DNA of 64,000 nt, taken from the IMG/VR virus record IMGVR_UViG_3300042505_000808; one strand, given 5' to 3'. The notes under the pieces were generated by a model that worked only from the letters and a program-made list of their open reading frames with translations, had not been told where the DNA came from and made no database searches. A program made the position numbers and the translations under genes. The stretch's first letter is position 1; every line of letters starts with the position of its first letter. This stretch comes from an uncultured virus (IMG/VR IMGVR_UViG_3300042505_000808) (taxonomy: Duplodnaviria > Heunggongvirae > Uroviricota > Caudoviricetes). This document shows, in pieces, positions 21,347 through 63,999 of the stretch.

Positions 21347-22084
21347 TTACCTCGGAATAAAAGGAGACAATTTTTGTTCTTGATCCAGCAATTGCTGTAT
21401 CTTAGTTTTACGCTGGGTAATAGCACCTGGGCTGCGATTAAGCTTGGCAGCAATTTCTTGATTTGATAGTTTTTTATTTCCACGCATTCCCAATGTCAGT
21501 TCCATGATGCGCTGGTCTAAAGGACTTAGCCCTTGATAAACTACTTCACCCCATAGGTCTGCACTAGCTTGCTGGTTAGGAACTACACTTGGAGCACCTC
21601 CCGCTAATGGGTCAATTGCATCTAATCTTCCTGTGTTAACTCCGGGCTGATAGCTACGAATCTTTGCAAGACGGGGCATAGCTATCCCCAGCTTGTCTGA
21701 TAGTTCTGCGTCAGTAGGATCTCGCCCAAGCTCGTCTGACAGCTCTTGTGTAGATCCGTGTAACCTTTGATTCTCTAGCAAGATGCGTTCAGGTACGCTT
21801 ATTACTTGATGCTGCTGCTGGTTAATCCTACGAAGCCCTTGCATCTGGGTTAACAAGTGCGACTGAAGGCGGGACCGCTTTGGATCGTACTTACGCACTG
21901 CGTCCAATGCTAACAGCTTGGCACGGCTAGACGTTAATGGACTATCTGCACCATACATCTTGACCCCCTTTTGTACTATTGGATCAAGTGCTTTTAGTAA
22001 GGCAGCGTTGCCTTCTGGTGTTTGATTCTGCTGCCAGCTTTGAAATGCTGGTTTATATTCGTCTTCTAAATAATCGTCCATCAT
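21347..22084 (-). CDS. RNA polymerase sigma factor, sigma70 family (group 3, FliA/SigF-like layout)
   Basis: Region 2 DAVRKYDPKR; ISVPE; region 3 ELGRDPTDAELSDKLG; region 4 LSPLDQRIMEL...LSNQEIAAKLNRSPGAITQR HTH; SD AAGGAG. Confidence 0.85.
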   Translation of the reverse strand: MMDDYLEDEYKPAFQSWQQNQTPEGNAALLKALDPIVQKGVKMYGADSPLTSSRAKLLALDAVRKYDPKRSRLQSHLLTQMQGLRRINQQQHQVISVPERILLENQRLHGSTQELSDELGRDPTDAELSDKLGIAMPRLAKIRSYQPGVNTGRLDAIDPLAGGAPSVVPNQQASADLWGEVVYQGLSPLDQRIMELTLGMRGNKKLSNQEIAAKLNRSPGAITQRKTKIQQLLDQEQKLSPFIPR

Positions 22085-28300: not shown

Positions 28301-30544
28301 AGCAAACATATCTCCCATTAAAGTAGCTAAGTTAGCATCTTCTCCTTTATCCCCTTGCTTCTGTATTCCAGTAGACAATCGTTGTAAAATGCTACCTTTA
28401 GGTCCGAGCCCAGACATTGCTTCATTTAAACCAGCTCTTGCACCCACTTCAGCTTGTTTCTCTTCTCGGCTTTCTCGCACAGCCTTACCATGCACTTGTG
28501 CGTAAGAAGTAGCATCCATTCCCAGCTTATTGCGTAGTACTGTCTCCCTCTGCCCAAAAGAAGTAGCAGCCATATTCTGAGCTTCTGCCTCACTTAAGAC
28601 TACTCCACGGTTAGCCGCCTCTGCTTGTATTGCATCGGCAATCGCTCGGTTTCTTTGTTTTGGATCTTGCAACTGTGCCATAGTCAATTCGTCAGTAGCA
28701 TCCGTGGCCGCTTTACCAAGTGCAGCTGCAATTTCTGTGCGTTGCTTAGGATCTGCCACTTGTTCTTGAAGTGCTTTGCTTGACGATAGACGATTGCCGG
28801 TAGTTCTAGCAATTTGCTTTGCAATTTCAGCAGGCTGCTGTCTCATCGCAGCCTGTTGCCGCTCTTCATTAGTAGACAAAGCACGTAGGTTAGAAGTTCG
28901 ATCCCCTAACATCATGTTAAAGTCCGAGGTGTTCATTCCATTCACAGCACCTCGCCCGACCATACTTCTAAATTCACCCTCTTTTGTTGGGGTGTTCTTT
29001 GTATGTGATTTACCTGAATCATCTACAAATGTGTAATTCGGTGCCCCAGAATCAGCGGCAGCTAATGCAGCTTTCATCTCTCGCCCAGCTTGATTCTCGG
29101 AAAAACCACCAGCTTCTTCGATGCGGGTTAAGGCTCCTAAAGAGTTAGCCATTTCAGAACCCATCCCACGAGAGAATAGGCCCATGGATGCCTGCTCTGC
29201 TTGTTCTCGGTTTAGTGCTCCAAATCCAGTAGCTCCACCATGCTCTGCAAAAGCCATACCTGTAGTAGTTCCAACCTTAAGCGATGTAGGATTAAAATGA
29301 ACTCCATGACCCCCCATCATCTGAGTGTTCTGCGAGTTGGCATATTGATTCATTGCAGTCAATTGATCGATACTTTTACCCGAAAGTTGAGACATGGCCT
29401 GCATATCTCGTACCATCGAAGTAAGCTGCCCTGGTGTAAATTTCTGCATCTGCCCCGAGGTCATGGCTTTAAGTGCATTTATTAATTTTGGAACAGGTGC
29501 GTTTGGATCTCCATTCTCACCGAACACCTCACGAATAGCCGAAAGCGATCCAACATAATTTTGTAGTTGGTCTGATATCTGCCTAGCGTCGTCCTTGCCC
29601 ATTTTAGCTGAGACACCTGAATCTTTTCTCAGTTTAGATAATTGTTCATTGGACAAGCTAGCAAGGTTGGTATCGTCTCCGATTTCAACTCCAACTTTTT
29701 TACCTATCGCTTTTAAATCCATCCCTTGTTCTCTACCTTCTTGTAAAGATTGAAGGGTGCGATCCCGCAAACTTCCGGTAGGACCAACCAAGCCTTCTGC
29801 GGATAATTGTCTATATGCTTGCCCCATATCTCCAGCCCGCATCCCATTCATTTGGGCCATGTTGTCCCTAGAAAACATGTTTTCAAAAACATTATTAACT
29901 AAGTTTTTATTGGAGTCAGTGCTGTATCCCATTTTACCTGTGATGGGGTCCGCTCGGTAGCGGTTTGCTTCCATCATCTGCCCAGCCATTGCTTGTACGC
30001 TGCCTTTTTCCCCAGAAATTGCATCCATGAAATCAGGAGCGACCATTGATAAAGTAGGCCCAAGCGAAGAAATAGTATCCGCCATATTGCGTGCGGCTTC
30101 TCGTTGTCTACGATCAAAAGGAACGCCAGCTAAAGCAGCGGCTCCTCGGAAAGAACGATAAATACCCTCGGAGTCTTGCCCCGCCACCCCTGCACCTACT
30201 TCATTTTTCATCCGTAAGTGTTCACGAGTGCGGTGTGCTTGCATGTAGGAACCAGCGTTACCCATAGGCATTAAGCCTTGCTGCTGCATCTGCTGAGATA
30301 AGTAAGCATTACCAGCACCCGCAGCTAGCATTCCACCTATGCCAAATTGTTGTAAGTTTAGAGGAGCTAAAGGAGATGTGTCGGGTAATGCATTACCTTG
30401 GATCGGAGAGGAATATCCTCGTGCCAACTGAGCTAAATACCCAGCACCCCCAGTGGGATGGGGACTAAATGCTCCACCTGGGAGCATCCCTAGTCCTTGT
30501 GTTGCATCTTGCATCCACTCTAATTGGCTGGGATCCATGGTCAT
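25349..30544 (-). CDS. Tail tape measure protein
   Basis: 1731 aa; Ala/Lys/Gln/Glu-rich helical; follows the chaperone pair; no Cys. Confidence 0.8.
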   Translation of the reverse strand: MTMDPSQLEWMQDATQGLGMLPGGAFSPHPTGGAGYLAQLARGYSSPIQGNALPDTSPLAPLNLQQFGIGGMLAAGAGNAYLSQQMQQQGLMPMGNAGSYMQAHRTREHLRMKNEVGAGVAGQDSEGIYRSFRGAAALAGVPFDRRQREAARNMADTISSLGPTLSMVAPDFMDAISGEKGSVQAMAGQMMEANRYRADPITGKMGYSTDSNKNLVNNVFENMFSRDNMAQMNGMRAGDMGQAYRQLSAEGLVGPTGSLRDRTLQSLQEGREQGMDLKAIGKKVGVEIGDDTNLASLSNEQLSKLRKDSGVSAKMGKDDARQISDQLQNYVGSLSAIREVFGENGDPNAPVPKLINALKAMTSGQMQKFTPGQLTSMVRDMQAMSQLSGKSIDQLTAMNQYANSQNTQMMGGHGVHFNPTSLKVGTTTGMAFAEHGGATGFGALNREQAEQASMGLFSRGMGSEMANSLGALTRIEEAGGFSENQAGREMKAALAAADSGAPNYTFVDDSGKSHTKNTPTKEGEFRSMVGRGAVNGMNTSDFNMMLGDRTSNLRALSTNEERQQAAMRQQPAEIAKQIARTTGNRLSSSKALQEQVADPKQRTEIAAALGKAATDATDELTMAQLQDPKQRNRAIADAIQAEAANRGVVLSEAEAQNMAATSFGQRETVLRNKLGMDATSYAQVHGKAVRESREEKQAEVGARAGLNEAMSGLGPKGSILQRLSTGIQKQGDKGEDANLATLMGDMFAGDMDEAAAKLNKPLESVRASQSKIESLTAKLQGASPEEKKKIQKEIKEETALLKQHVTASREMSDSLGLTDKEGEFNQADIAKGKTAARELDHFNRMEQVRAAGSTAEVTKQERKDAGTTKLTDSDMRVLAEKDRTKQLEEADKLSAGAIKNLSPEAKAVYDKAIKSGANEETARARVKEKLRGDVVSVDVRAKEMREELGADATVGGLKDEKTQDAIIQGRRGGVELKPTAKAVDERTELMRTEAAGQKKLTKEELKALDPAALKAYNSSEKQLTQKAEDQLLAENQLRSLGVLGADEKLSGKGADIAKYKGLDGADKAQLKKDLVAAKSEDRAAIVSKYIDNKQIEQFYGKTEADVTKKRDAANTYADSAEGKRAAQDTESRIGSLSEMRREFLSDSKAVSRGGARAIIAAKQSQESEEQLQSMANKYFGGDVGKMVSSGGVALDKKGQDQVKADFNKLSDAEKTTVTERLKAAGKDVGTGMFGGSNLTEKDYAAYLSLKSKDLVGNMKDSVEGMSGAANKTYADMLKPTEATKTLAKTMVGKDASSEQEKGLQALSSAATLKGTDLKKATAGLDLKTITNQIAAGKPVNTDGMTPEQKELIKSAEGMQGLTGLNKDQITSLDKMAKEDARDVSKDAAALGMKEEDYRKAVRGGEIDPNLKMFKDDPTKGTAKAQLQAARQDESSLSGSKTQLANAKEMLARNPNSPNAQQEVARLSGVVEKKTASKEARMKEAGLDINKPEDVKKYEQRLNNQGVVEQLEKRKAEYTAEATKLRAGGMSESDIVKNLGTMTGLEKDAQKIAKEAKDKDLGSDSMNTLADAFGKTTKEDRQKFSADLGKSGGVAGDRNRQMVANVLKDVGKLTIGGKDATAIDKLDMLTDEYAKAKTPEQKKALAKTHGMSEDALDSMMKKTEFMGLKDKAPGKYGEKDLKESLGRVSTQDIAADVKKEADKTMKLTGTLTIKGTVNGEGNMSETILAPTR

Positions 30545-52142: not shown

Positions 52143-54674
52143 TTAGTTCCTTGAAACTTCGTCTAAGTTAATGTCACCTTTATCAAATGATGACTCAATA
52201 GTCTTCTCTTTCAAGAAGAGTGTAATATCACCAAGAGATTCAAAGGCATTCCGTAAACTATCTTCTAATTCTGGAAGATCACTTTTACCATATCTATCTT
52301 CAAATTCTTCTTGATGCCAGTAGAAATTCATCAACAACCGGCCTAGCGAATCCAAGGCTGCCATTAAGTCGCCCAAGTGGCGGTCTACCAGTGAATCTTG
52401 TCTTACTGTTTTTAACATACCTGCCATCATTGAAACATCAAATACTTCTTTCTGACCATCTTTGCCAGCAGTTTGTGCTGATTGCAGATTTTGTTGAAAA
52501 TCTTTAGCTTCAAAGTTCTGCCAGTTGTCCCACTTGGATCTATTTGTATTCTTACCACTCATTGAGGGTATAGGTGAATTCTTTTCCGTAGGATAGCGAG
52601 TCAAGGCAGATGTGCTTGGCCCAAATGTCTCGCTACCACGATCCCCAGAAGTGTCCGTATCAAGGGGGAACGAAGGACCTCCAGCTAACACACTAGTATT
52701 AGGTGCAGCTTGTTTCTCTGTGCCATAGCCAGCAGCATACAGCACACGATAAATTGCATGCCCTGACTTCTCTGCTTTTTGCAGCATATCCATAGCAACT
52801 TTTTCACGAAGTCCATGTGTGTCTACCAACCGGCATAATGCTGCTTTTTTGCTTAATTGAACGGCACCGATTACAGAGTCTAAGTACACATCGGTGCCGT
52901 TATTGAATATTTTGAGCCTAGCTGTCTTTTCAACTAATAAGCGTTTGATGTCAGATAAGCCACCTAACTTAATAGGATTTGATTCATCGTCAAAAGGTGA
53001 ACAGCCACACCCACCAAAGATGCTGGAAGAAGAACCATCCGACAATTTGATGAACTTGAAAGAAGCTGGCACACGAAGTTGCCCGGAGACAGGTCTAAGT
53101 CTAAGGCCGCTCTTATCTTCTTTGCCAATGATTAGAGTAGCCCCATAATTACTATTACTATTGAAAGAACTTATTAGATTAGCACCTGCTGCCATGCCCC
53201 GCCTAGAAGGAGCATACCGATCTTGTATCTTAGGCATCAGCTCGCTACGTGAAGCTGAATAATCTTTATTCGTGCGAAAATCTACTTTGTACTCACCATC
53301 ACCCATGTCCGTAGTTACACGGAAAGGCGCAGTAGCCGAACGACTGTAGTTTATAGCGATATATTCTGCATCCTCGTCTAAGTCTGTGTCAGAGGATAAG
53401 CCGTCAAACCAATCTTTCCATTCGTCTTTGTCCGAAACTTGTGTAGCAAAAACTGATGTGCTGTCGGCATTTAACCAGCTTTTATTAGCTCCATCCTTTT
53501 TATCTATCCGTACAACTGTGGTCATGGACTCTGCTCCACGACTGCTGATACCATTCAAGACCACCAGCATTTTGCTAAATTCACCAGAGCTTTCTAAAAC
53601 AGAATATAATTCAGTTTCAGAGGGGTTAGTGAGGCTAATATCATTTTCAGTGGTGTAAAGCTTACTTACTTCTGTATCTTCTCTACGATCTTTGATGACT
53701 ACTTTGCCTTGCAGCAATTTCTCTCGGTCTGAAGTGCCCAAATCAGATTTGTTCGTAACCACCGATGCGGACATATAGATCTCTAACTTACCTTCTTTAA
53801 TGTGATCGGTAATAGGCTGGGGCTGGGAGAGCGTACCCAGCAAGGTAGTAGGCACAAGTGTGACGGTAGTAGGCGTAGGAAGAATGCTGCTAGCCTGCTT
53901 GATTGTGTTACTTCGAAGTTCTTTAGCCCAGCGGGAAAAACAATCAACACCATAAAAGTCACTAGTAGCTTTTTTAATGGTGGGATAGCGTTCTGCTAAG
54001 TCGTAAGCTGCTTCAAGTAATGCCAAGCTTTTAGGGAGCACTTGGTTAAAATCCAGATTTGAAGCTGTCTTTGCTAGCGCCGCTTCAAATGGCACTTGGA
54101 CAACTGCCTTTTGATCCAACTTGCGATTACCTGCGCCACGATACAAGGATCCGGCAAATTTTACTTTGAAGGCGGCAAGCATAGGAAGCACAGGTGCTAG
54201 CCAATGAGAATCACTTGCGTGCTTGTTGCCTTGGGGCGAAATAGACAAAGAGTTAATGTCAGGGGCAATGCCTCCGAGCTCTTGTAATTTGCCTACAGAA
54301 GGTTCTCCTAAAATATGAGGTTTCCGGCTCATAAGATAGTTGATCCAATTTTCTTTCATTGGAACAAATGAATCATTATTTTTTATGTAGAGTAGCTCGT
54401 GTCCTTTTAAATCACCATTTAAGAAAAAGACAGGAGCATACAACCACTGCTTACCGATTTGAAAGCCAAAAACACCAATAGCTTTAGTATTGTCTTCATT
54501 ACGATCAATTAGCTGGAAGCCCAACATATAATCAAGAAGTCTTGGTGCCTTATCTTTTAGATAAGCATAGGCTAAGCTAGAGAAAGCTTGTTCAAATTCT
54601 GTTTCTCCTCCCTTACCGCCGATACTAGCATTCTTCAATAAATTATTTTTTCTAGACATTTTCATGAGCCACAT
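52143..54674 (-). CDS. Large putative head/inner-body protein
   Basis: 843 aa; K-x-A motifs (KNAS, KHAS, KTAS, KQAS, KTAR, KQAA) at apparent domain boundaries. Confidence 0.55.
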   Translation of the reverse strand: MWLMKMSRKNNLLKNASIGGKGGETEFEQAFSSLAYAYLKDKAPRLLDYMLGFQLIDRNEDNTKAIGVFGFQIGKQWLYAPVFFLNGDLKGHELLYIKNNDSFVPMKENWINYLMSRKPHILGEPSVGKLQELGGIAPDINSLSISPQGNKHASDSHWLAPVLPMLAAFKVKFAGSLYRGAGNRKLDQKAVVQVPFEAALAKTASNLDFNQVLPKSLALLEAAYDLAERYPTIKKATSDFYGVDCFSRWAKELRSNTIKQASSILPTPTTVTLVPTTLLGTLSQPQPITDHIKEGKLEIYMSASVVTNKSDLGTSDREKLLQGKVVIKDRREDTEVSKLYTTENDISLTNPSETELYSVLESSGEFSKMLVVLNGISSRGAESMTTVVRIDKKDGANKSWLNADSTSVFATQVSDKDEWKDWFDGLSSDTDLDEDAEYIAINYSRSATAPFRVTTDMGDGEYKVDFRTNKDYSASRSELMPKIQDRYAPSRRGMAAGANLISSFNSNSNYGATLIIGKEDKSGLRLRPVSGQLRVPASFKFIKLSDGSSSSIFGGCGCSPFDDESNPIKLGGLSDIKRLLVEKTARLKIFNNGTDVYLDSVIGAVQLSKKAALCRLVDTHGLREKVAMDMLQKAEKSGHAIYRVLYAAGYGTEKQAAPNTSVLAGGPSFPLDTDTSGDRGSETFGPSTSALTRYPTEKNSPIPSMSGKNTNRSKWDNWQNFEAKDFQQNLQSAQTAGKDGQKEVFDVSMMAGMLKTVRQDSLVDRHLGDLMAALDSLGRLLMNFYWHQEEFEDRYGKSDLPELEDSLRNAFESLGDITLFLKEKTIESSFDKGDINLDEVSRN

Positions 54675-54987: not shown

Positions 54988-57900
54988 TCATTTAGAACTT
55001 TCTGCCCATCCTCGATACTCCGCTAGATCTTCATTGTTAGTTCTCAATTGGGATTCTAGTTTCGCCCTTTGTTCTGGCGGAAGAGAAGTATCTCGAAGTT
55101 GTGCTTCAACTGCCACAATGTTTTCTTTAAGCCCATTAACTCGATTACGCATGTCCGTGCTAAACAAGCCCTTACCTGAAGAACCACCCTCTCGCTCGTA
55201 AGTACCCATCATCTGCTTACGCTGTGCCTGTCTATTTAATAACTGCTCCTGCCTTGCTTGCCCCCCTGCGTCTAGCTCCCCCTTAGCTTTTAACTCTGCT
55301 AGTTCTGTGTCCGCAGCTGTAACCGAATTTTGCATGGCATCACGGAATTTGTGTCCGCCACTACCAAACCAATTTTGTTGGCCTAGTCTCCAGTTAGCTG
55401 TTTCATCCGCTGTATTTCCTTGTCTAGTTTTAGCGTCTTGTATTTGTGCTTTTAAATCTGCAGTACCTTCTAAATTCTGCGGTTTAGTCAAAGCTAATTG
55501 TGCTTCTAGACCTTTTTGCTTTTCTACTTCCATTGCATTAACTTGCGTTTTGTCTGCCACCGAGGCACGGGAACGAGCATCAGTTCCAGTTACTTTGTCA
55601 CGAATAGCTTCACCGGCCATCCCAGCCTGCTCCCCAAGCATCCCCGCTGTCTGAGTTGCACCCCCAGCTATTAGCTGCGCATTAGCCACTGGGTTAAGAG
55701 CTTGTGCAGGGGCTTGCCATGCTGTATGCAGCCCATCTTTAAACGAAAGAATGTCTCTCCAGTTTTGTGCTGCATCATTGGTTGTATTATCCCAACCTTT
55801 ATCTACTATGTCTGAACCAACGCTATAAGCTTCCATACCTGCACCAAGGAATGGCAGAGCTTTTCCTACTCCTTTAGTAAGTGCTGAAAATCCTTTACCT
55901 ACATAACCTGCAGGTGCTTTAGGTAATGGGGGTGGACCTTTAGGCAATGGCGGGGGGCTACCAGGCACAGGTGGTGGAGTTGTAGGAAAGGGGGGCGGGC
56001 TTCCGGGTATAGGAGGCGGAGTGGTAGGAAATGCAGGTGGTTTAGGTGCCATAATTGTATTTTTTATACCATTGTAGCCAATTGGAGCAGCATACCCAAA
56101 TGCTGTACCTGTATCTGGACCCGAGCGGGCTGCTGGTTTTTCCTCTGTAGGCGAGTCTACTGTAGGAGCAGATGCTGTAGGGGCACTAGGCTGGGAACCG
56201 CCACCAAACATATTAAGCATGCTATTCCACATCCCACCTTGGTTTGCAGCTGGGGTAGGACTGCTGCTAGGTGCATTAGATTGCGGGCTTTGGTTTAAAT
56301 TTTGTTGTCCTTGTCCGCTGTTGTTTTGGGCACCACCCCCAAACATATTAAGCATATTACCCCACAACCCATTATTATTACTTGTAGCTAATCCTTGTGA
56401 GGGTCTCGAATTAAATAGCTGTTGAAAATTACCACCACCAGCCATCCCACCTAACATCATAAGCCCCATTAAAGGATTTTGATTTAACATCTGCCCAGCT
56501 TGCCCTGCAAAATTAGAATTATTTTGCATCAAATAATTAAAGTGATTAAATTGATCCGAATTTGAGGTTGGGGTAGGTGTAGATGCGGGCGGAGGGGCTA
56601 AAGCAGAAGTGCCCTGATCGCCCTTTGCGTCAGTATCTTTGTATGTGTCATACAGTGATGGGGCGGGGGCAGGAGTAGGTGCAGGCGCAGGAGTAGGTGC
56701 AGGGGTAGGTGGCAGAGCTGGCATGATATTTGGGCTAAGGTCAGCTGCTGGGGTATAAGGATGAGGTTCAGTATTATTACGAGGGGCAACCCCGCCTTCC
56801 ATATGTTCTGGGGAATTTGACCCATTCCTTGGGGCTGGTCCGCCCATATATTCTGTAGCAGGGGTATTGGGTATCGGTTTAGAGACGGCAGGAGGCTTAG
56901 AAACGGAAGGTGGTTTAGAAACATCTGGAACAGAGTCCATCGCAAGCTTAGTTTGGCCAGGGGTAAAACGACCGCCAAAAAAAGGAGCGTTGCTAGGTGC
57001 TATAGGCTTTAATGCAGGAGGAGTAGGAGTTGCAGGTAGCTCATAGCTAGGTTTAGGTTTTATTACCGCATGGTCTTTACCTTCTCCAAAATCAAGACCC
57101 ATTGCTAAACTAGGAACAAAGCTTGTACCTCGTTCTTCGCTGATAGCCCCATGAGTCACAGAATCTAAGAAACTTTTCTTTAAACCAGACCCATACATTT
57201 GAGTCATCCAGTCAGGATCATGCTGCATTTGATACAAACCACGAACCATGTGGGGCTCAAATGGCGGAGGGTTCTTGTGTACTGGAATTTCATTGATTTC
57301 AAAATCTTGAAAATTCTTAAGCATAGAAGGTCGAATTTTAGTACCAATAGTGTAATGCAGTATAGGTCGTTCAAGATATTGACCTAGTGCTCGCTTAGGA
57401 GTTAATCGCTGGTGGTCTTCTCGTGGTTTGTAAGTGTGCTCAAGCGTAGAGTAAGGAACAATATCGTCAGGTACATGGTCATCTGTTTCTTCTGTCAGCC
57501 TTACATGGTTAATAAGACCTCGAGCTAATACCTCTATGTTTCGTCTGTGCCCGAACATTCCGCTGTCACCCATTGCCTTACGAAACTCATTAACAAAATA
57601 GCGTCTTCCTTCGCCTACCCCTTTGTGCTCTGTAATAGTAGCAGGGTTAGGAATTCCTGAGCTAATTACATCCCCAGCCTCTACCTCGTCTCCTTTTTTT
57701 ACTTTAAGATCAAACCCAGCCCCTACATAATGTTGTTTATCTCCAATGGTTACATAGCTACCACCCGCAGGAGCTTCCTCAATACGCTGTACTACTCCAT
57801 CTTTTAGTGCATGCGCTGCCCCGCCTTGCATCTTCTTTGGAACTTGCACTAATTGGTTTAAATACTGGAAACCGCTGACAGCTTTTTCTTGACCTGCCAC

Positions 57901-58920
57901 TCCACCCGAATGTTTTGCAGATAGCTGACCTTGGCTAATCGGTTCACTTAAAGCATGTGCAGCCTGTAACCCAACTTGCTCGCCAAGCCCTGGAAGCTTT
58001 CCAGTTTCCCGAATACCTACATCCCTAGAATAAACACCACCATCGGGAGATCCACCTACGAGGGCAGATCGTACTAAGATTTTAGATGTGCCAAGCCGTT
58101 TTAAATGATTCAGTATTTTCGGAGTAAGGGGAGTGTTTCGAGCATAAGGGCCAACAGCCCGAGCTAGCAGTGCTCCTTCGTTATCTGCGTCATCAGTGTC
58201 TACTACCAATCCTCGAATAGGTGCATCTTCTGCCTCTTCGGCATCTTCTCCGGTTACCACTAATCTATGGCTAGTTTGATTAAGTTGTTTGTTAAAAAAT
58301 CCGGCATCTTGTGTGGCAAACTTAGTTGCCATAATACCTTTACGTGCCCCATAGGTTCCGGCCCAATACTCGGCAGGGGACAACCCTTCGCTGTAGCTAC
58401 GCAGTACAGGGATTGGAATCACATCATCCCGCTGATCCGAATACAGCATGTCTGAACCTAACAAACTAGTTAAATTCATAGACTTACCGCGCGTACCTGA
58501 CATTACCTGCATCCCAAGCGGATTCTTATTTAGCAATGCCTCTGCAAGTACTTGTTTTTGTTGTTCTGGACTTTCTTTACCAACGGCACGAATAATCTGC
58601 TCATTTCGCTGCTGATCTGTCAAAGATTCGTCAGATAGAATGTTGGTAAGTGTTGCTCTAACTTTCTGGCGAGAAGCTAATGCCGCTTTGCTTACTTGCA
58701 AATGGCGAAGACCAAAAGACATGCCACCCTGCTCTTGAGCCATGCTTTGGCCAAGACCACTTAGCTTAAAAGAAATGTCTTTATAACGCTCTGGGTGTTG
58801 TTGTGCCACTTGCTGTAATAAAGATTGCAGCCCTTTTTTATCTAGCACACGATGAGAGTCTCTCAACTCTTCCGGAAGGACATCATTAATTAACAGTTGT
58901 CCAACGGTCGTATTCAACAT
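54988..58920 (-). CDS. rpoC: RNA polymerase beta' subunit, C-terminal half, fused to a 650-aa low-complexity extension
   Basis: TTVGQLL; SGTRG; bridge helix EGLSPAEYWAGTYGARKG; trigger loop GEQVGLQAAHALSEPISQGQLSAKHSGG; NIEVLAR. Confidence 0.9.
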   Translation of the reverse strand: MLNTTVGQLLINDVLPEELRDSHRVLDKKGLQSLLQQVAQQHPERYKDISFKLSGLGQSMAQEQGGMSFGLRHLQVSKAALASRQKVRATLTNILSDESLTDQQRNEQIIRAVGKESPEQQKQVLAEALLNKNPLGMQVMSGTRGKSMNLTSLLGSDMLYSDQRDDVIPIPVLRSYSEGLSPAEYWAGTYGARKGIMATKFATQDAGFFNKQLNQTSHRLVVTGEDAEEAEDAPIRGLVVDTDDADNEGALLARAVGPYARNTPLTPKILNHLKRLGTSKILVRSALVGGSPDGGVYSRDVGIRETGKLPGLGEQVGLQAAHALSEPISQGQLSAKHSGGVAGQEKAVSGFQYLNQLVQVPKKMQGGAAHALKDGVVQRIEEAPAGGSYVTIGDKQHYVGAGFDLKVKKGDEVEAGDVISSGIPNPATITEHKGVGEGRRYFVNEFRKAMGDSGMFGHRRNIEVLARGLINHVRLTEETDDHVPDDIVPYSTLEHTYKPREDHQRLTPKRALGQYLERPILHYTIGTKIRPSMLKNFQDFEINEIPVHKNPPPFEPHMVRGLYQMQHDPDWMTQMYGSGLKKSFLDSVTHGAISEERGTSFVPSLAMGLDFGEGKDHAVIKPKPSYELPATPTPPALKPIAPSNAPFFGGRFTPGQTKLAMDSVPDVSKPPSVSKPPAVSKPIPNTPATEYMGGPAPRNGSNSPEHMEGGVAPRNNTEPHPYTPAADLSPNIMPALPPTPAPTPAPAPTPAPAPSLYDTYKDTDAKGDQGTSALAPPPASTPTPTSNSDQFNHFNYLMQNNSNFAGQAGQMLNQNPLMGLMMLGGMAGGGNFQQLFNSRPSQGLATSNNNGLWGNMLNMFGGGAQNNSGQGQQNLNQSPQSNAPSSSPTPAANQGGMWNSMLNMFGGGSQPSAPTASAPTVDSPTEEKPAARSGPDTGTAFGYAAPIGYNGIKNTIMAPKPPAFPTTPPPIPGSPPPFPTTPPPVPGSPPPLPKGPPPLPKAPAGYVGKGFSALTKGVGKALPFLGAGMEAYSVGSDIVDKGWDNTTNDAAQNWRDILSFKDGLHTAWQAPAQALNPVANAQLIAGGATQTAGMLGEQAGMAGEAIRDKVTGTDARSRASVADKTQVNAMEVEKQKGLEAQLALTKPQNLEGTADLKAQIQDAKTRQGNTADETANWRLGQQNWFGSGGHKFRDAMQNSVTAADTELAELKAKGELDAGGQARQEQLLNRQAQRKQMMGTYEREGGSSGKGLFSTDMRNRVNGLKENIVAVEAQLRDTSLPPEQRAKLESQLRTNNEDLAEYRGWAESSK

Positions 58921-58961: not shown

Positions 58962-59531
58962 TTAGTCGTCACTATCGTCACCACCAAAGGCGGCTTCGAT
59001 ATCTTTAAGAGTAATTTCTTCACTCTTGCCACGCTTTGCTTTCTTACGAGATGGCTTAGGTTCATCTTGTATAATAGCAGCCGCCTCTGGCATACTCTCA
59101 ACAACTTTGACTACTTCTTCTTTAATAGCTTCAGGAGCTAGTATAGAAAAAGATATGGAGTCTGCCTGATCACGGGTTAATTCTCCCCGTCCAACCGACA
59201 TGTCTACAACGATTTGCAGCTGTGTAATTATATATTCAGTGGCCTTCACTGTGATAAGCGTGGCTCCGTTTTCAAATTCAGCTTGTATGGCTGCGAGCCC
59301 ATAGCAATTATCAAGTATTTCTAACTCTACTTCTTTTTTTGGAGGAAGTTGAAGTTTAGCAATAAGAGGGGCATCTTCTAATATAGGTAGTGACATCTCG
59401 GCATAATACTTATTATTAGAAGAGTTTAAGTTAGAAGATTGTTGATAAGTAGGAGCAGGGATAGCTGTAAGGCTAACCTCTGGTTTTCGGTCTCGATAGT
59501 AGCAGTCAGAAGATCGTAAAGAATCGTCCAT
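58962..59531 (-). CDS. Hypothetical protein
   Basis: 189 aa between the RNAP genes. Confidence 0.65.
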   Translation of the reverse strand: MDDSLRSSDCYYRDRKPEVSLTAIPAPTYQQSSNLNSSNNKYYAEMSLPILEDAPLIAKLQLPPKKEVELEILDNCYGLAAIQAEFENGATLITVKATEYIITQLQIVVDMSVGRGELTRDQADSISFSILAPEAIKEEVVKVVESMPEAAAIIQDEPKPSRKKAKRGKSEEITLKDIEAAFGGDDSDD

Positions 59532-59532
59532 A

Positions 59533-59757
59533 TTACACCTGTATCTTAGTAGAAATAACGGTTTCGTTAATACCTAGTTTACGCAAATTATCATTGAAAC
59601 TGGCATCTTCACAATGAGACACCATAACGCTGGAAGAACCACCAAAAAGTGCAGCTACGCTAACTGGAGTACCATCTAGCATACGCACTACAACCTGAGA
59701 AGCAGGTATCCTAAGTGGAGGTTTACCAATACTTTCAAGTACCTCCACGATAAACAT
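59533..59757 (-). CDS. Hypothetical protein
   Basis: 74 aa; tightly packed with an SD-like AAGGGA. Confidence 0.6.
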   Translation of the reverse strand: MFIVEVLESIGKPPLRIPASQVVVRMLDGTPVSVAALFGGSSSVMVSHCEDASFNDNLRKLGINETVISTKIQV

Positions 59758-59769
59758 ATAATAAATCCC

Positions 59770-60504
59770 TTACTTGTTATTATTACGCATTAAAAGTGCA
59801 GTAGCCAACGCTGCTACACTGCCACTTTTAACAGAAGTATGTTGAGGGTAATAATCCGCAGGCAAGCTGAAAGCTGTACCACTTTCCCACGCCTCCGCTG
59901 ACTTCATAGGAGCAATAGGTTGAATCTGCCCAAGACCACCACCCGACTTACCATCGGGAGTAGCTGCCGCTAATCCTGGCCCACCTTGTGCAATCTGGTT
60001 TAAGTCTTCAGGTGTTACCACCATATCAGACACAGGTACATGGATGCCAAGTGCATCAATAATCTTAGCAAGCATTTTCTTAATCTGTACGATTTCGACA
60101 TTGATGTCAATTTTAGGTTTAAGACCGGGGCCTGCGCCTTGTGGTTGCCCGCCACCATTAGCTGACATTGCTTGTTGCACTGCCTGTTGAACCATCGGCA
60201 TTATTGCTGCCATGGGGTCCATAGGGGGAGGAGGTGGAGCACCGCCACCCATAGAAGGATCCATAGGAGGAGGTGGGGCACCACCGCCCATAGAAGGATC
60301 CATAGGAGGAGCACCGCCCATTGAAGGGTCAGGAGGTGGAGCACCACCGCCCATAGAAGGATCCATAGGAGGAGCACCGCCAGAAGGCATAGGAGCCCCC
60401 ATAGCAGGATCGCCTGCCGCAACAAATGCATATTTAGATAGGTGTCGTTTTCCTACATGTTGTCGGGCCATCTTTAACAATTCCAAATTAACTGCCATAA
60501 ACAT
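59770..60504 (-). CDS. Pro/Gly/Met-rich protein (GGAPPPMDPSM repeats)
   Basis: 244 aa; SD AAGGAG; KYA and KSA motifs flank the repeat core. Confidence 0.7.
   Translation of the reverse strand: MFMAVNLELLKMARQHVGKRHLSKYAFVAAGDPAMGAPMPSGGAPPMDPSMGGGAPPPDPSMGGAPPMDPSMGGGAPPPPMDPSMGGGAPPPPPMDPMAAIMPMVQQAVQQAMSANGGGQPQGAGPGLKPKIDINVEIVQIKKMLAKIIDALGIHVPVSDMVVTPEDLNQIAQGGPGLAAATPDGKSGGGLGQIQPIAPMKSAEAWESGTAFSLPADYYPQHTSVKSGSVAALATALLMRNNNK
60212..60385 (-). repeat. About five imperfect 30-40-bp coding repeats (GGAPP..DPSM)
   Basis: Repeated atagaaggatccataggaggag / gcaccgccc units. Confidence 0.85.
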
Positions 60505-60570: not shown

Positions 60571-63500
60571 CTAACCATTTAAAATTCGTACGGGATCGTT
60601 GATCGAAATATCTCCACGTGCATGCGCTCGTCTTACATCCTGTATATTCTGGAAAATCCTTAATGGTCGATCAGATTTACGAGAAGGATCTGTACCCATA
60701 AATAAACCACCAATGTACTCATTAGCAGGGGCATGCATTACAGACTTCATATCACCCACACTAAAAAGATTACGACTTGGCAATAAGCGGTCAAATGCTT
60801 CTTGCCTAGCTTTTTCCGTACTTGGCACATGATAGTTCATGGTGTCGCCATCAAAGTCAGCACCAAATCCCTTCACGATCAAAGGACTTACTTGTAGGGT
60901 ATTCCCTTTAGTCAATCTTGGCCTCATCGCCATAATCCCAAACTTATGCAAAACAGGAGCACGACTAATATATACAGGACGATGCTCCATCTCTTCAAGC
61001 AAGAATTTGCGTGCTACCGGAGTCTTATCTTCTAATTGAGTACGAGCCTGCAGCATCGACATGCCTTGTCGCACCAATCTTCTAGTAACAAATTTCTCAT
61101 AGACCTTAAATGCTTTATCTTCGGGCAGCCCTACCGAGTCCATGTCCAATTCCGGATTTGGAGTAATTACCGCTCGACCTACATTGTCTACCGTAGACGA
61201 AATCAGTTTGCGTTGTACAACCCCGAACTTAGGGCTTGCACCAAACACATTTTTTAAAGCCCCACGAACATTCTTCTCTTGGCTTTTTGCACTAATAGGA
61301 TCACCTAACCCAGTCACCGCTTTAAATGCTTGATAGGTAGAAAGACGCTCCGATCCCGAAGCTTCTTCCCCTACTTCTTGCTGCATTTTGCTAAAATTCT
61401 GATTAGCCTCAAACAGTTCTTTATAAAGGTGATTAGCGTCGTTAACCAATGGCATGCCATTGCTCATCAAGCTAACTGGACGAAACATTGGAGGAAGAAC
61501 TGGCACTTTGGTCAGCATGTAGTCCGCAGGCTTCAGCCCTAGTTTATGTGCAGATTTAAAATAGCTAAGCTTACGAATTGCGGCATCTCGTTGCGCCCCT
61601 CGCCCTGCGGCTATCATAGCTCGAGCTTTAGGGATTTCTGCTTCTGGATTAAGATTCTCTAATGCCTTTTGTAAAGCTTTCGTACCGGTGCCATATTTCT
61701 CTAAAAATTCTGTACCTGCCACAATGCCTTCAAACTTTTTCTGTGTTAGCCCAAGCATATGACGAATAGGTTCTTCCATTACTGGGTTAGGTAAAGGTTC
61801 GTGCAAACGCATAAACGACCAACGAGTGCCCCCGTGTCCACCAGTTTTAGCCTTGTCAAATAAGCCACCATTAATCTCTTTAAGCTGATTTCCCCATTCT
61901 ACTCCGTCTGCGCTGCTAAGCTCACGATCCCCAGCTAAGTTGTCAATGTCCTTGTCCGTCAATGCCATGATTTGAGTCTGCGTTCCTTGCTTAACCACAT
62001 TAACTCCAGCAGATTGCAGCTGGGCTACAAACTTCTGATAAGCAAAAGGAACTTTAGTAACCTTAGGGTTATACCCAGACATGTACTGCATCCAATAATC
62101 ATCATTCTTCTGCCTACGAATTGTAAAAATGTCCTGCAGTGTGTCCGTAGCTCCGTGAGAAAGTAATGCGTTGGCATCCATTAGCCCAATACGCTTAGAA
62201 CCTTCAACACCACCTTTAGCCGGTGCATCTTCCATCGTGTAAGCTCCACCACTTCTACCTTGTCCTTTAGACTCAGAGGTGTGATGCAGTTTCATGAAGA
62301 AACGATTACCCGTTGCCACATTTTTAATTTTTTGATCTTTAGATGGGTCTATAATGTCTTCTAAGTCCGACAAACCTTCCTTAGCTAATTCTTGCATAAC
62401 CCATTGAGTCATATCTTTTTTAGTGTCAAAATCATCCACCTTAATAGGCATGCCACGCTTAGCTGCTATTTTACCTAGAAACAATTCAGACATTTGAGCT
62501 GGGTTGGTTCGGCTAATAATCCCAAGAGGATTAAGAAGCACTTCAAAAGGTTGTTTATTTGAATCATGGGGCATTTCGCTATCTGGGATGATGTCAGCAA
62601 TAACACCTTTATCCCCATAACGACCCGACAGCTTATCTCCAACCTGCGTTGGCGATTCTGCCTTAACTACAACGACTGGACCTTTCTTACCCATTACCAC
62701 ATCAGTAACAACACCACTATCGTGATGCTGCCAAAGTACTGCTGCGTCGTTGAATCCAGATTGACCCTTCTTATGCACTTTGTTGTATACATTTTCCTTT
62801 TGTGTGATCCCCAATACCAAAGGATCTCCAAAGTTAACTACTGTACCAGGCTTGACCACTCCTTGATCGTCTATGTTCGCTAATATGTCTTTTTTAAAGG
62901 TAGCTGGAAATGCTTGAATAAATTGTCTTTTACCGACTTGTGTTTTGTCATCCACTTCCAACTCATGCTGGTACATATGGGAAGAAGCTGTCTTCTTTGC
63001 AAAGCTTTCTGAGATAACAACCGCATCTTCAAAGTTTTTACCCTGCCATGGGATATAGGCAGTGCGAGCATTTCGGCCTAAAGCCATTGTTCCAGTACTG
63101 TCCGTGAAGTTAGAGCTAGCTAATAACTGATTTGGTCTAAATGTGTCACCGGGTTTAACTGCGGCAGTTTGATGAAAAAAGGTTTTACGATTGAAAGGAA
63201 AATTATGATAAAGTTCGTGCGTTTCTTCTGTTCCGTCTGCATTACGCACTTTAATCTCTTCATCCGTCACCGAGGTAACTGTACCTCCTTGTGTTGCCCT
63301 TAAAGCTCCCATCCCAGATGAGTATAGCTCTTCATAACTTTGTTTACCGCCTGTGTGCGGAACTGCAGACTGTACCAAAGGAGCTTCAGGAGAAGCTAAA
63401 GGTAATGCTTGTGTGGTCATACGAGATGCCATCACTAATCGCTGACCTTTTACCTGACTCTTCATGGGGATGACATTAGAAAGAGGATTAAATGCTTCTT

Positions 63501-63999
63501 CCATGTCAGGAAGCTCTAAATCAATGCTTGATTTAGGTACATGTAACATCTTACCGCCACGCATCGCCACTACACGGGCATCTTCACCATCTTGGCTTCC
63601 GGGAAAACCAACGGTTAAGTCTGCTACATCTTGAGGAGTTTTAAAAGTCATTTCCCCGCTACGCAGATCCTTAAACTGAGCATAGAGCTTACCATCGCTT
63701 CCTTTACGAGATCCCCTAGCTAGATATGTGTCCACCCCTACACGACCCGACTCGGGAGTACGCACAGGATCCACATAACCCAACATGCTTGACTGTACAT
63801 TTCTGGATTCCATGGGAATTGCATCCATAGAACCAATACCACCCTCACCCACTCGAGTAACAGACATTGTCTTTTCATAAATGTCTGTAGGATTAATTTC
63901 TTCAATCGCTTGCCCTAGCCCGCTACCGAGCAAAGCACTTTTTAACTGTTTTTCTAATGCTGAAGACGGCATCGAATCCAAATTACCTTTGCCTGACAT
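60571..63999 (-). CDS. rpoBC: RNA polymerase beta (C-terminal half)-beta' (N-terminal half) fusion, probably 5'-truncated by the window edge
   Basis: Beta motifs RTPESG, RMTTQALPL, NFEDAVVIS, GDKLSGRYGDKG, LNPLGIISR, MKLHH; then beta' motifs VPVLPPMFRP, GRAVI, RAPVLHK and catalytic ADFDGD (DFDGD at 60844-60858). Confidence 0.92.
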   Translation of the reverse strand: MSGKGNLDSMPSSALEKQLKSALLGSGLGQAIEEINPTDIYEKTMSVTRVGEGGIGSMDAIPMESRNVQSSMLGYVDPVRTPESGRVGVDTYLARGSRKGSDGKLYAQFKDLRSGEMTFKTPQDVADLTVGFPGSQDGEDARVVAMRGGKMLHVPKSSIDLELPDMEEAFNPLSNVIPMKSQVKGQRLVMASRMTTQALPLASPEAPLVQSAVPHTGGKQSYEELYSSGMGALRATQGGTVTSVTDEEIKVRNADGTEETHELYHNFPFNRKTFFHQTAAVKPGDTFRPNQLLASSNFTDSTGTMALGRNARTAYIPWQGKNFEDAVVISESFAKKTASSHMYQHELEVDDKTQVGKRQFIQAFPATFKKDILANIDDQGVVKPGTVVNFGDPLVLGITQKENVYNKVHKKGQSGFNDAAVLWQHHDSGVVTDVVMGKKGPVVVVKAESPTQVGDKLSGRYGDKGVIADIIPDSEMPHDSNKQPFEVLLNPLGIISRTNPAQMSELFLGKIAAKRGMPIKVDDFDTKKDMTQWVMQELAKEGLSDLEDIIDPSKDQKIKNVATGNRFFMKLHHTSESKGQGRSGGAYTMEDAPAKGGVEGSKRIGLMDANALLSHGATDTLQDIFTIRRQKNDDYWMQYMSGYNPKVTKVPFAYQKFVAQLQSAGVNVVKQGTQTQIMALTDKDIDNLAGDRELSSADGVEWGNQLKEINGGLFDKAKTGGHGGTRWSFMRLHEPLPNPVMEEPIRHMLGLTQKKFEGIVAGTEFLEKYGTGTKALQKALENLNPEAEIPKARAMIAAGRGAQRDAAIRKLSYFKSAHKLGLKPADYMLTKVPVLPPMFRPVSLMSNGMPLVNDANHLYKELFEANQNFSKMQQEVGEEASGSERLSTYQAFKAVTGLGDPISAKSQEKNVRGALKNVFGASPKFGVVQRKLISSTVDNVGRAVITPNPELDMDSVGLPEDKAFKVYEKFVTRRLVRQGMSMLQARTQLEDKTPVARKFLLEEMEHRPVYISRAPVLHKFGIMAMRPRLTKGNTLQVSPLIVKGFGADFDGDTMNYHVPSTEKARQEAFDRLLPSRNLFSVGDMKSVMHAPANEYIGGLFMGTDPSRKSDRPLRIFQNIQDVRRAHARGDISINDPVRILNG

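Follow-up and report, generated by a model that had tools for sequence, protein, structure and literature searches.

Could a phage build its RNA polymerase (RNAP) so that both catalytic barrels, one from beta and one from beta', share a single chain while the rest of beta' is made from another gene? The question is raised by a record of an uncultured tailed virus (Caudoviricetes; IMG/VR IMGVR_UViG_3300042505_000808), a linear sequence of 178,753 bases (C1) with an estimated completeness of 83%. The window, that is, the whole 64,000-nucleotide stretch of DNA analysed here, is the minus strand of G000:C1:113732-177731; positions without a prefix are those of the window, positions marked C1 are those of the record, and L-numbers (e.g., L010, L021) are working names for stretches of this or related records. 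A first-pass annotation of the window had described a beta gene running into the catalytic half of beta' (here beta::beta'N, or chain 1) and a separate gene for the remainder of beta' (beta'C, or chain 2). We called 211 open reading frames (ORFs) in the whole record and scanned all of them with Pfam and the 76 ORFs from C1:87185 on with PHROGs.

The results indicate a phage-encoded, bacterial-type multisubunit RNAP that consists of two polypeptides, would use a sigma factor and would be carried in the particle. Taken as a whole, we consider this statement probable, because its parts differ in strength: we hold with high confidence that the two-chain core is a genuine phage RNAP, and packaging and sigma use are slightly favoured. 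The parts of this design are each known (rpoBC fusion, split beta', and phage RNAPs without alpha or omega); their combination, in which the two barrels share a chain and the remainder of beta' stands apart, is not described in the literature that we searched.

Both catalytic barrels lie in one chain

The ORF that closes the window (Table 1) codes for 1142 aa, is open at the window end and has the C-terminal end ...GDISINDPVRILNG. In the whole record, the gene is 1488 codons long (C1:112695 to 117161), and the beta N-terminus, which was to be sought outside the window, turned out to be the first 346 codons of the same ORF (C1:112695-113732). Pfam places Rpb2_3 (residues 376-440) and Rpb2_6 (582-935, E 3.7e-50) in this one chain, together with the beta' domains Rpb1_1 (1167-1222) and Rpb1_2 (1334-1414, E 1.2e-23). 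In comparisons with the PDB, residues ~120-1036 correspond to bacterial beta, with 8x6f_C as the top match (E 2.8e-69), and cyanobacterial beta chains align as a single stretch starting at residue 120. Residues 1114-1486 correspond to beta' or cyanobacterial gamma, with 8syi_D as the top match (E 1.1e-44, at 184-552 of 624). Beta is whole and compact up to about residue 1015. Pfam, PDB and NCBIfam profile mapping thus bear out a beta C-terminus that is fused into beta' through the DFDGD barrel.

Are the catalytic residues of the two barrels retained? The GDKLSGRYGDKG motif, at 62605-62640, carries K802 and K810, both of which are invariant among 66 aligned homologues, so the beta barrel keeps both catalytic lysines. 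In the same alignment, D1394, D1396 and D1398 are invariant, the family consensus being NADFDGD, and the Mg-binding triad is therefore intact. Both double-psi barrels, Rpb2_6 and the Rpb1_2 domain with its three aspartates, are in one polypeptide, as the first-pass annotation had expected.

The remainder of beta' is encoded by a second gene

The second RNAP gene (54988..58920, minus strand) codes for 1310 aa, carries Rpb1_5 and begins with MLNTTVGQLL, in agreement with the predicted start at TTVGQLL. Its residues 2-494 align to residues 658-1169 of the beta' chain 8dy7_D (E 3.3e-35), and this alignment contains the bridge helix (ARKG...) and the trigger loop (SEP...HSGG).

On the 2890 positions of NF007172, chain 1 extends to position 1941 and chain 2 begins at position 1946, so that nothing of beta' is lost or duplicated between the two genes. 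This profile alignment establishes that fusion and split are combined here. On TIGR02386, chain 1 covers 157-533 and chain 2 covers 548-1061. Chain 1 stops at ~550 of the 619-position rpoC1 model TIGR02387, and residue 23 of chain 2 is position 4 of the rpoC2 model TIGR02388; the break thus lies ~20 residues upstream of the cyanobacterial rpoC1/rpoC2 break, within the same inter-domain stretch, and the earlier placement of it as slightly upstream was correct.

The break is at the same place in distant relatives. On TIGR02386 it falls between ~533 and 548 here, between 534 and 547 in a 205-kb IMG/VR relative and between 534 and 563 in Vibrio phage D69; in Salmonella phage Arash, the first gene ends at position 533 and the break on NF007172 falls between 1938 and 1949. 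Since the same profile position is kept despite ~30% identity, the alignments point to one ancient fusion-plus-split event. The beta' of phiKZ-type phages is also split at the cyanobacterial site (PMC7598289), so this stretch appears to be a recurrent permissive site.

Beyond the beta' homology, chain 2 carries a lineage-specific tail, a Pro/Gln/Asn/Gly-rich low-complexity stretch followed by a conserved helical C-terminal domain. The beta'C gene product is 1310 aa long here and 1239, 1206, 1208, 1060 and 654 aa long in five relatives, which identifies the tail as a variable, dispensable addition. Pfam and PHROGs gave no family for the tail, and an ESM Atlas search with its residues 940-1310 returned unnamed viral clusters with a top score of 0.83, which is below a meaningful level.

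The open junction is real

The last conserved beta motif, PFAYQKFVAQLQSAGVNVV, stops at residue 1015, and beta' homology begins at I1023. The linker between them lies inside the interval (~61960-62010) for which a stop-free passage from beta to beta' had been predicted. The junction segment is of equal length in 86 of 95 aligned homologues, with a mean column identity of 0.75-0.82; strong purifying selection acts across the junction. Furthermore, we collected 264 family proteins (P0003-P0266), the best matches fetched from a junction-spanning search and from a scan of 50%-identity representatives. All 264 cross residues 1000-1045 in a single BLAST segment, and none of them contains the C-half of beta'.

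Contigs of metagenome runs give the same picture. Twenty lake-water or unlabelled metagenome runs contain the stretch at 0.90-1.00 of sampled words, 15 of them being possible sources of the record. Contigs from four other runs, those not flagged as possible sources (one near-identical contig, X17, may still be the source), were aligned to window positions 61400-62600. In all four, the junction was covered and free of indels, and the only nearby difference was a synonymous change (61834 G>A; H1068, CAC>CAT). The coverage check over the junction, together with the homologues, thus revealed neither the hidden stop nor the sequencing error that the first-pass annotation had guarded against. Because all relatives read through and the contigs of the other runs lack indels, the junction is real, and the beta::beta'N layout is not a sequencing artefact.

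Distribution and cultured relatives

Of 8000 candidates scored in a search with residues 900-1488, 5859 proteins had E<=1e-10. The best 120 junction-spanning matches are 57-97% identical and contain PF00562 and PF00623 in all except P0097 and P0099; 94 of these 120 are 1440-1520 aa long, the chain here being 1488 aa. When 1.84 billion 50%-identity representatives were scanned with residues 560-1488, 2191 matches were found at E<=1e-30, many of which are probably ordinary beta or beta', and the 150 best all had E<1e-234.

Has a cultured phage the same arrangement? Among 50,697 phage records searched by tblastn, 53 had a match, and in four of these the match spanned 80% or more of the query. These four are Salmonella phage Arash and the Vibrio phages D69, D148 and D181, with 29-30% identity over residues 65-1485. 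The genes of these cultured relatives are annotated simply as 'beta', 'beta'' or hypothetical; in D69, for instance, the 1527-aa and 609-aa genes are both called 'hypothetical'. The first-pass annotation had allowed that the architecture might belong to an already described phage RNAP family. It does occur in the cultured Arash, D69, D148 and D181, but a phage beta::beta'N fusion that is accompanied by a beta'C gene of its own was not described in the literature searched, which included the accessible part of PMC13282480 and left most subscription journals outside its scope. The Arash paper names the two chains 'beta' and 'beta'', and its accessible part mentions neither a fusion nor a split (PMC10585845).

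The family is also rich in insertions. The 264 family proteins contain 248 insertions of more than 100 aa, with hot spots at ~1400 (44, beside DFDGD) and ~800 (22, beside the catalytic lysines), as well as at ~470, ~1270, ~430, ~950 and ~620. Several of the proteins carry intein or LAGLIDADG Pfam domains. In D181 (L021:2857-8371), the gene is cut into ORFs of 514 and 1006 aa by a homing-endonuclease gene; in D69 it is uninterrupted.

One polymerase set with a sigma-like protein and a helicase

In the whole record, PF00562 and PF00623 were found only in the 1488-aa frame, and each of five relatives' records has one Rpb1_2 locus; among these five are the complete Arash genome and a record that has terminal repeats and is rated 100% complete. 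Neither the alpha N-domain (PF01000) nor omega (PF01192) was matched at E<=1, be it in the whole record (83% complete) or in the five relatives' records; the same searches were positive in 14 of 14 control genomes. The earlier statement that the window holds no recognisable alpha or omega therefore stands and extends to the record, except that a 104-aa stand-alone protein resembling the alpha C-terminal domain (CTD) is encoded outside the window (C1:37075-37389 = L006:18058-18369 (+)). This protein matches PF03118 (E 2.9e-11) and positions 239-312 of the 320-position NCBIfam rpoA model, i.e., the alpha CTD only. Its role could be that of a decoy, aimed at activators of the host or at UP elements, or that of an accessory to the phage's own polymerase.

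A 245-aa protein similar to the sigma-70 family is encoded in the tail/baseplate region of the window. It matches phrog_351 (E 1.3e-8) and Arash gp10 (E 6e-18), and its homologues comprise 175 proteins at E<=1e-5, with Sigma70_r3 in nearly all of the 120 listed. Four of the matches are on contigs of 204,794, 156,975, 233,405 and 85,087 bases, sizes that are also met among contigs of the RNAP family. The protein is likely the initiation factor of the two-chain polymerase. The Arash sigma gp196 has no similarity to the 245-aa protein (E 0.66). A Sigma70_r2 match at C1:63725-63853 (E 8e-4) was rejected as spurious, since the 51 codons in which it falls are in frame with neither of the adjacent ORFs.

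A complex of fusion residues 1020-1488 and the sigma-like protein was modelled from alignments of 66 and 52 rows, respectively. The model scored 0.71, compared with 0.20 for the best of three controls; this mark is attained by 116 of 157 solved complexes and by 2 of 215 mismatched pairs. Contact agreement between runs is 54% or higher, and the pLDDT of the partner is no lower than 69. Confident contacts are predicted between fusion residues 1188-1248, which are the clamp helices (NDLYRRVINRNNRL... in the PDB alignments), and partner residues 23-60 and 91-101. The contact of sigma region 2 with the beta' clamp helices is the textbook interface, and because of this the model may have passed through its resemblance to solved holoenzymes.

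A 506-aa SNF2 helicase is encoded elsewhere in the record and is 32% identical to Arash gp217 (E 1e-65). The gene for this orthologue lies ~26 kb upstream of the beta'C gene. In phiKZ (gp74-gp75, L023:26626-30256) and in Arash (gp216-gp217, L003:19247-22485), a helicase gene directly follows the beta'C gene.

The polymerase lacks cysteine and both zinc sites

Chains 1 and 2 contain no cysteine in 2798 residues, whereas cysteine makes up 1.34% of the proteome of 211 ORFs (756 of 56,484). At that frequency, the chance of finding none is about 2e-9 for chain 1 and 2e-8 for chain 2. Bacterial beta' has two zinc sites with four cysteines each; as there is no cysteine in either chain, both are gone, and the zinc-binding domain of the beta' N-half is deleted. 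According to a by-eye alignment to the flanking GLF... and ...PNPV, the N-terminal site is replaced by a short Gly-rich loop, TGGHGGTRW.

The same trait is seen in the relatives. Eighty-eight of 95 fused homologues are free of cysteine and the remaining seven have 1-3, while beta'C is cysteine-free in all five IMG/VR relatives. Arash gp206 has one cysteine and the D69 fusion has two. In the present record, two neighbours of the fusion (244 and 264 aa), the sigma-like protein, the SNF2 helicase and two large proteins of 1731 and 975 aa are likewise free of cysteine. The two large proteins and the helicase, together with the RNAP chains and the sigma-like protein, may be a set that is delivered into the host.

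Comparison with known polymerases

The closest characterised system is that of phage Arash (OQ632216.1; PMC10585845), whose gp206 (1525 aa) and gp216 (606 aa) share both the fusion and the break point in beta'. Arash also has orthologues of the companion genes, the sigma-like gp10 and the SNF2 helicase gp217, which are inherited along with the polymerase, and, like the present phage, one RNAP set without an alpha N-domain or omega. The differences are that identity to Arash and D69 is only ~30%, that their beta'C lacks the ~690-aa tail and has 4 Cys, and that in Arash and the Vibrio phages another number of genes lies between the RNAP genes.

In whole rpoB-rpoC fusions (NF007172 and NF011417, which we take to be the Helicobacter and Wolbachia types), the beta C-terminus is continued by the beta' N-terminus, as it is here. 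NF007172 is the top NCBIfam match of the fusion (E 1e-99), with 334 bits against a curated cut-off of 5372. Those fusions, however, hold all of beta' in one chain (~2850-2890 positions), whereas the phage chain stops at 1941 of 2890. In cyanobacteria and plastids, beta' is broken into RpoC1/gamma and RpoC2 just past the catalytic barrel, again as here, but in cyanobacteria beta is free-standing and alpha and omega are present, whereas the phage beta is fused and its beta' breaks ~20 residues upstream. No specific ancestry is shown by these matches, because the margin of 8syi_D over non-cyanobacterial beta' is small (1e-44 vs 2e-41).

Among phage enzymes, the phiKZ/AR9-type RNAPs are likewise phage-encoded and without alpha or omega, and they have a helicase beside beta'C, as Arash does. 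In the phiKZ type, however, beta is in 2-3 pieces, there are two paralogous sets and there is no sigma homologue, whereas the present phage has a whole and fused beta, one set and a sigma-like gene. PHROG matches to phiKZ/AR9-type families have E values of 1e-9 to 1e-25, much weaker than 8e-74. The mReC metagenomic phages are also tailed and uncultured, and their beta and beta' can be recognised as bacterial-type subunits (Weinheimer & Aylward 2020, PMC7481178). In all 43 metagenomic-phage rows consulted in supplementary file 5 of that source, beta, of 999-1487 aa, is a separate protein from beta', of 887-1391 aa; the filter applied there was a beta' match of at least 800 aa with NADxDGD (PMC7481178). 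Finally, the RNAPs of crAss-like phages, YonO and the P23-45 RNAP have both barrels in a single polypeptide, as the fusion chain does, and the P23-45 virion RNAP is fused to a structural (tape-measure) protein (PMC10770324). These single-chain two-barrel RNAPs are so diverged that beta and beta' models fail to recognise them (PMC7481178); the fusion chain, unlike them, matches bacterial models at E 1e-50 to 1e-99.

Gene order and other genes

The two RNAP genes are separated by three conserved small genes, with the beta'C gene downstream (Table 1). Five IMG/VR relatives, whose fusion proteins are 70-96% identical, have the same gene order: a protein of 260-324 aa with segments that are hydrophobic and Gly-rich, the fusion (1479-1494 aa), a Pro/Gly-repeat protein of 216-250 aa, a 74-aa protein, a protein of 190-236 aa with an acidic end, beta'C, and a protein of ~840 aa. 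Neither the three intervening proteins nor the membrane-like 264-aa protein encoded upstream of the fusion had a Pfam or PHROG match. The tandem repeats of the 244-aa gene also leave other frames, on either strand, open over long distances, but the resulting ORFs are probably no genes.

The 843-aa protein that follows beta'C is distantly similar to gp218, a structural protein of Arash that is encoded two genes past the beta'C gene gp216, right after the helicase gene gp217. The Arash portal gp204 was considered as a match of this 843-aa protein and rejected (E 0.07, not significant).

Table 1. Coordinates of the RNAP genes, their functional elements and associated genes
Feature	Position	Strand	Basis
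C-terminal 1142 codons and stop of the 1488-aa beta::beta'N gene	60571..63999	-	ORF calls, Pfam, PDB and NCBIfam matches
Beta double-psi barrel region, Rpb2_6, residues 582-935	62233..63294	-	Pfam
Fusion linker KQGTQTQ, residues 1016-1022, before IMALTDKD...	61972..61992	-	Alignment of 95 homologues
Beta' N-terminal half, residues 1023-1488	60574..61971	-	PDB, Pfam, alignment
Beta' clamp helices, residues 1195-1236	61330-61455	-	PDB alignments
Catalytic GADFDGD, residues 1392-1398	60844-60864	-	Alignment
Conserved 244-aa Cys-free protein, PPMDPSMGGGA-type repeats	59770..60504	-	Same place in 5/5 IMG/VR relatives
Conserved 74-aa protein between the RNAP genes	59533..59757	-	ORF list, relatives
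Conserved 189-aa protein, acidic C-terminus, between the RNAP genes	58962..59531	-	ORF list, relatives
Beta' C-terminal half, chain 2 residues 1-620	57061..58920	-	Pfam, PDB, NCBIfam
Bridge helix of chain 2	58255-58362	-	PDB alignment
Trigger loop start of chain 2	57901-57948	-	PDB alignment
Lineage-specific beta'C tail, ~690 aa, including stop codon	54988..57060	-	Composition
843-aa protein distantly like Arash gp218	52143..54674	-	Two segments, E 1e-5 and 2e-5
1731-aa Cys-free protein	25349-30544	-	Zero-Cys chance 7e-11
245-aa Cys-free sigma-70-family-like protein	21347..22084	-	phrog_351, NCBIfam, Arash gp10
975-aa Cys-free protein	C1:80296-83223		Zero-Cys chance 2e-6
506-aa Cys-free SNF2 helicase	C1:91069-92589		Zero-Cys chance 1e-3

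Other genes of the record are worth noting in their own right. A 431-aa protein of the tubulin/FtsZ family (C1:74778-76073; L008:17090-18382 (+)) matches PF00091 (E 8.6e-11). Proteins of this family occur in nucleus-forming jumbo phages; no further hallmark of those phages was found in the Pfam scans of all ORFs or in the PHROG scan. In a family-A DNA polymerase of 1163 aa (C1:51578-55069; L007:12772-16260 (+)), the exonuclease and polymerase modules are preceded by an N-terminal domain of the uracil-DNA-glycosylase superfamily (PF03167, E 7.8e-14, residues 144-295). A 148-aa SET-domain protein (L010:8735-9178 (+), PF00856, E 1e-7) and a 258-aa sulfotransferase-family protein (L010:5516-6289 (+), PF13469, E 4e-9) are encoded upstream of the RNAP region, and there are several glycosyltransferases in the record.

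Is the polymerase carried in the particle?

The presence of an Arash-type RNAP in a virus particle is known from the particle proteomics of Arash alone. There, gp206 gave 3516 spectra, the most of all proteins, with 100% coverage and 128 unique peptides, while gp216, gp217, gp218 and gp10 gave 1210, 1148, 1149 and 467 spectra, respectively, in the accessible data of that report (PMC10585845). We infer packing and delivery in the present phage from these proteomics, from the place of the RNAP genes among structural genes and from the selective loss of cysteine.

How might such an enzyme assemble and act? In bacteria, an alpha dimer nucleates the assembly of beta and beta', and artificial as well as natural rpoB-rpoC fusions are functional. 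In the phage, the covalent beta-beta' link would stand in for the missing alpha dimer during assembly, and the sigma-like protein would dock on the clamp helices and direct initiation. The enzyme, the sigma-like protein and the SNF2 helicase would be packed in the particle and delivered with the DNA, where the enzyme would transcribe the early genes. Being the sole phage polymerase, it would therefore also be made and used later in infection.

A more specific version of this scheme is tentative, and we rate it somewhat below an even chance. In it, a zinc-free and cysteine-free holoenzyme (beta::beta'N, beta'C, the sigma-like protein and the SNF2 helicase) would be packed in the head, ejected with the DNA and re-formed from unfolded chains once these have passed the phage tail, the beta-beta' link replacing the alpha-dimer platform and the beta'C tail serving packaging or ejection. 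If true, virion RNAPs would have a third independent design in addition to those of N4 and phiKZ, and it would be the first to use a sigma-family factor.

Several observations weigh against a particle-borne, sigma-using enzyme. The Arash particles contained 116 proteins, including ribonucleotide reductases, a ligase and a primase, and the authors allow for carry-over of abundant proteins (PMC10585845), so that residence in the virion is unproven even in Arash. The sigma-like protein falls below every curated cut-off (NCBIfam sigma-70 models, E 2.4e-7 and weaker), and the docking model shows a predicted, retained interface rather than proof of binding. Arash gp216 and the D69 beta'C retain four cysteines each, which are perhaps the second zinc site. 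The virion RNAP of phiKZ (Gp178, Gp80, Gp149, Gp180) has 16 Cys in 2614 aa (0.61%) and its non-virion RNAP (nvRNAP; five annotated polymerase genes and gp68, which we take to be a member) has 33 Cys in 2850 aa (1.16%), against a phiKZ background of 0.79% that is crude, being drawn from ORFs of at least 150 aa in three phiKZ loci. The names of the virion subunits and of gp55 in the nvRNAP set are those of the accessible part of PMC10612078, the other polymerase genes following the record annotation. The depletion in the phiKZ virion enzyme is in the expected direction and gives weak support, but ejection clearly does not need zero cysteine; since those virion subunits keep theirs, we can only suggest that a cysteine-free protein travels unfolded through the tail. 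Moreover, the activity, assembly and packaging of this phage's own polymerase are inferred, the record is 83% complete, and a hybrid use of host alpha, omega or sigma is conceivable.

Could the two-chain RNAP be real but stay out of the particle, being made after infection for the middle and late genes while the host RNAP, perhaps redirected by the phage sigma, transcribes the early ones? The single RNAP set per genome would fit this, as phiKZ-type phages have separate virion and non-virion enzymes (PMC7598289, PMC10612078), and so would the wealth of plainly non-structural enzymes in the Arash particle proteome (PMC10585845) and the usual view, in the parts of the literature consulted, that phage sigma factors redirect host RNAP (PMC7598289, PMC7824862). 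We nevertheless consider it unlikely, because gp206 tops the spectra in Arash particles (PMC10585845), the RNAP genes have structural genes as neighbours, and cysteine, which makes up 1.34% of the proteome, is selectively missing from the polymerase, the helicase and the sigma-like protein.

The phage chains might also work in a hybrid with host alpha2, omega and/or host sigma. They are clearly of the bacterial type, with bacterial beta, beta' and gamma as their top PDB matches, the clamp helices to which sigma is modelled to dock appear to be kept, and neither an alpha N-domain nor an omega of the phage turned up in the record or in the five relatives' records. On the other hand, phiKZ-type RNAPs function without alpha and omega (PMC7598289, PMC13282480), the family has a sigma-like gene of its own, found on four contigs whose sizes match those of the RNAP family, and the covalent fusion would substitute for the alpha scaffold; a hybrid enzyme is thus quite improbable. 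Another idea is that the fusion is genetic only, the 1488-aa product being cleaved near the junction (e.g., by a head-maturation protease) into beta and beta'N. Large phages commonly process their head proteins, and nothing more direct speaks for cleavage here, whereas the seven-residue linker is conserved and of fixed length in 86 of 95 homologues. The complete coverage of gp206 by its 128 unique peptides also speaks against it, although whether any of these peptides spans the junction could not be seen in the accessible data (PMC10585845). We therefore give cleavage very little credence. That a sequencing error, frameshift or assembly chimera conceals a stop between rpoB and rpoC is ruled out by the 264 of 264 continuous relatives, the indel-free contigs of four other runs and the same single ORF in the cultured phages Arash and D69.

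Implications

Bacterial RNAP is built on an alpha dimer, stabilised by omega and equipped with two structural zinc sites. The phage enzyme, which lacks alpha, omega and the zinc sites while its catalytic motifs are strongly conserved across hundreds of lineages, is thus a natural minimal bacterial-type polymerase. It bears on how the polymerase core assembles, on which of its parts are dispensable and on how the borders of subunits shift in evolution, and within this single family subunits have been fused and split, and inteins and homing endonucleases have inserted many times. The sequences are already public, and one cultured member has published proteomics. Because cultured members exist (Arash and D69), packaging, rifampicin resistance and sigma use are directly testable. 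The family is common in metagenomes, those of lakes among them, so that the way in which it transcribes its genes is relevant to a large group of phages in the environment.

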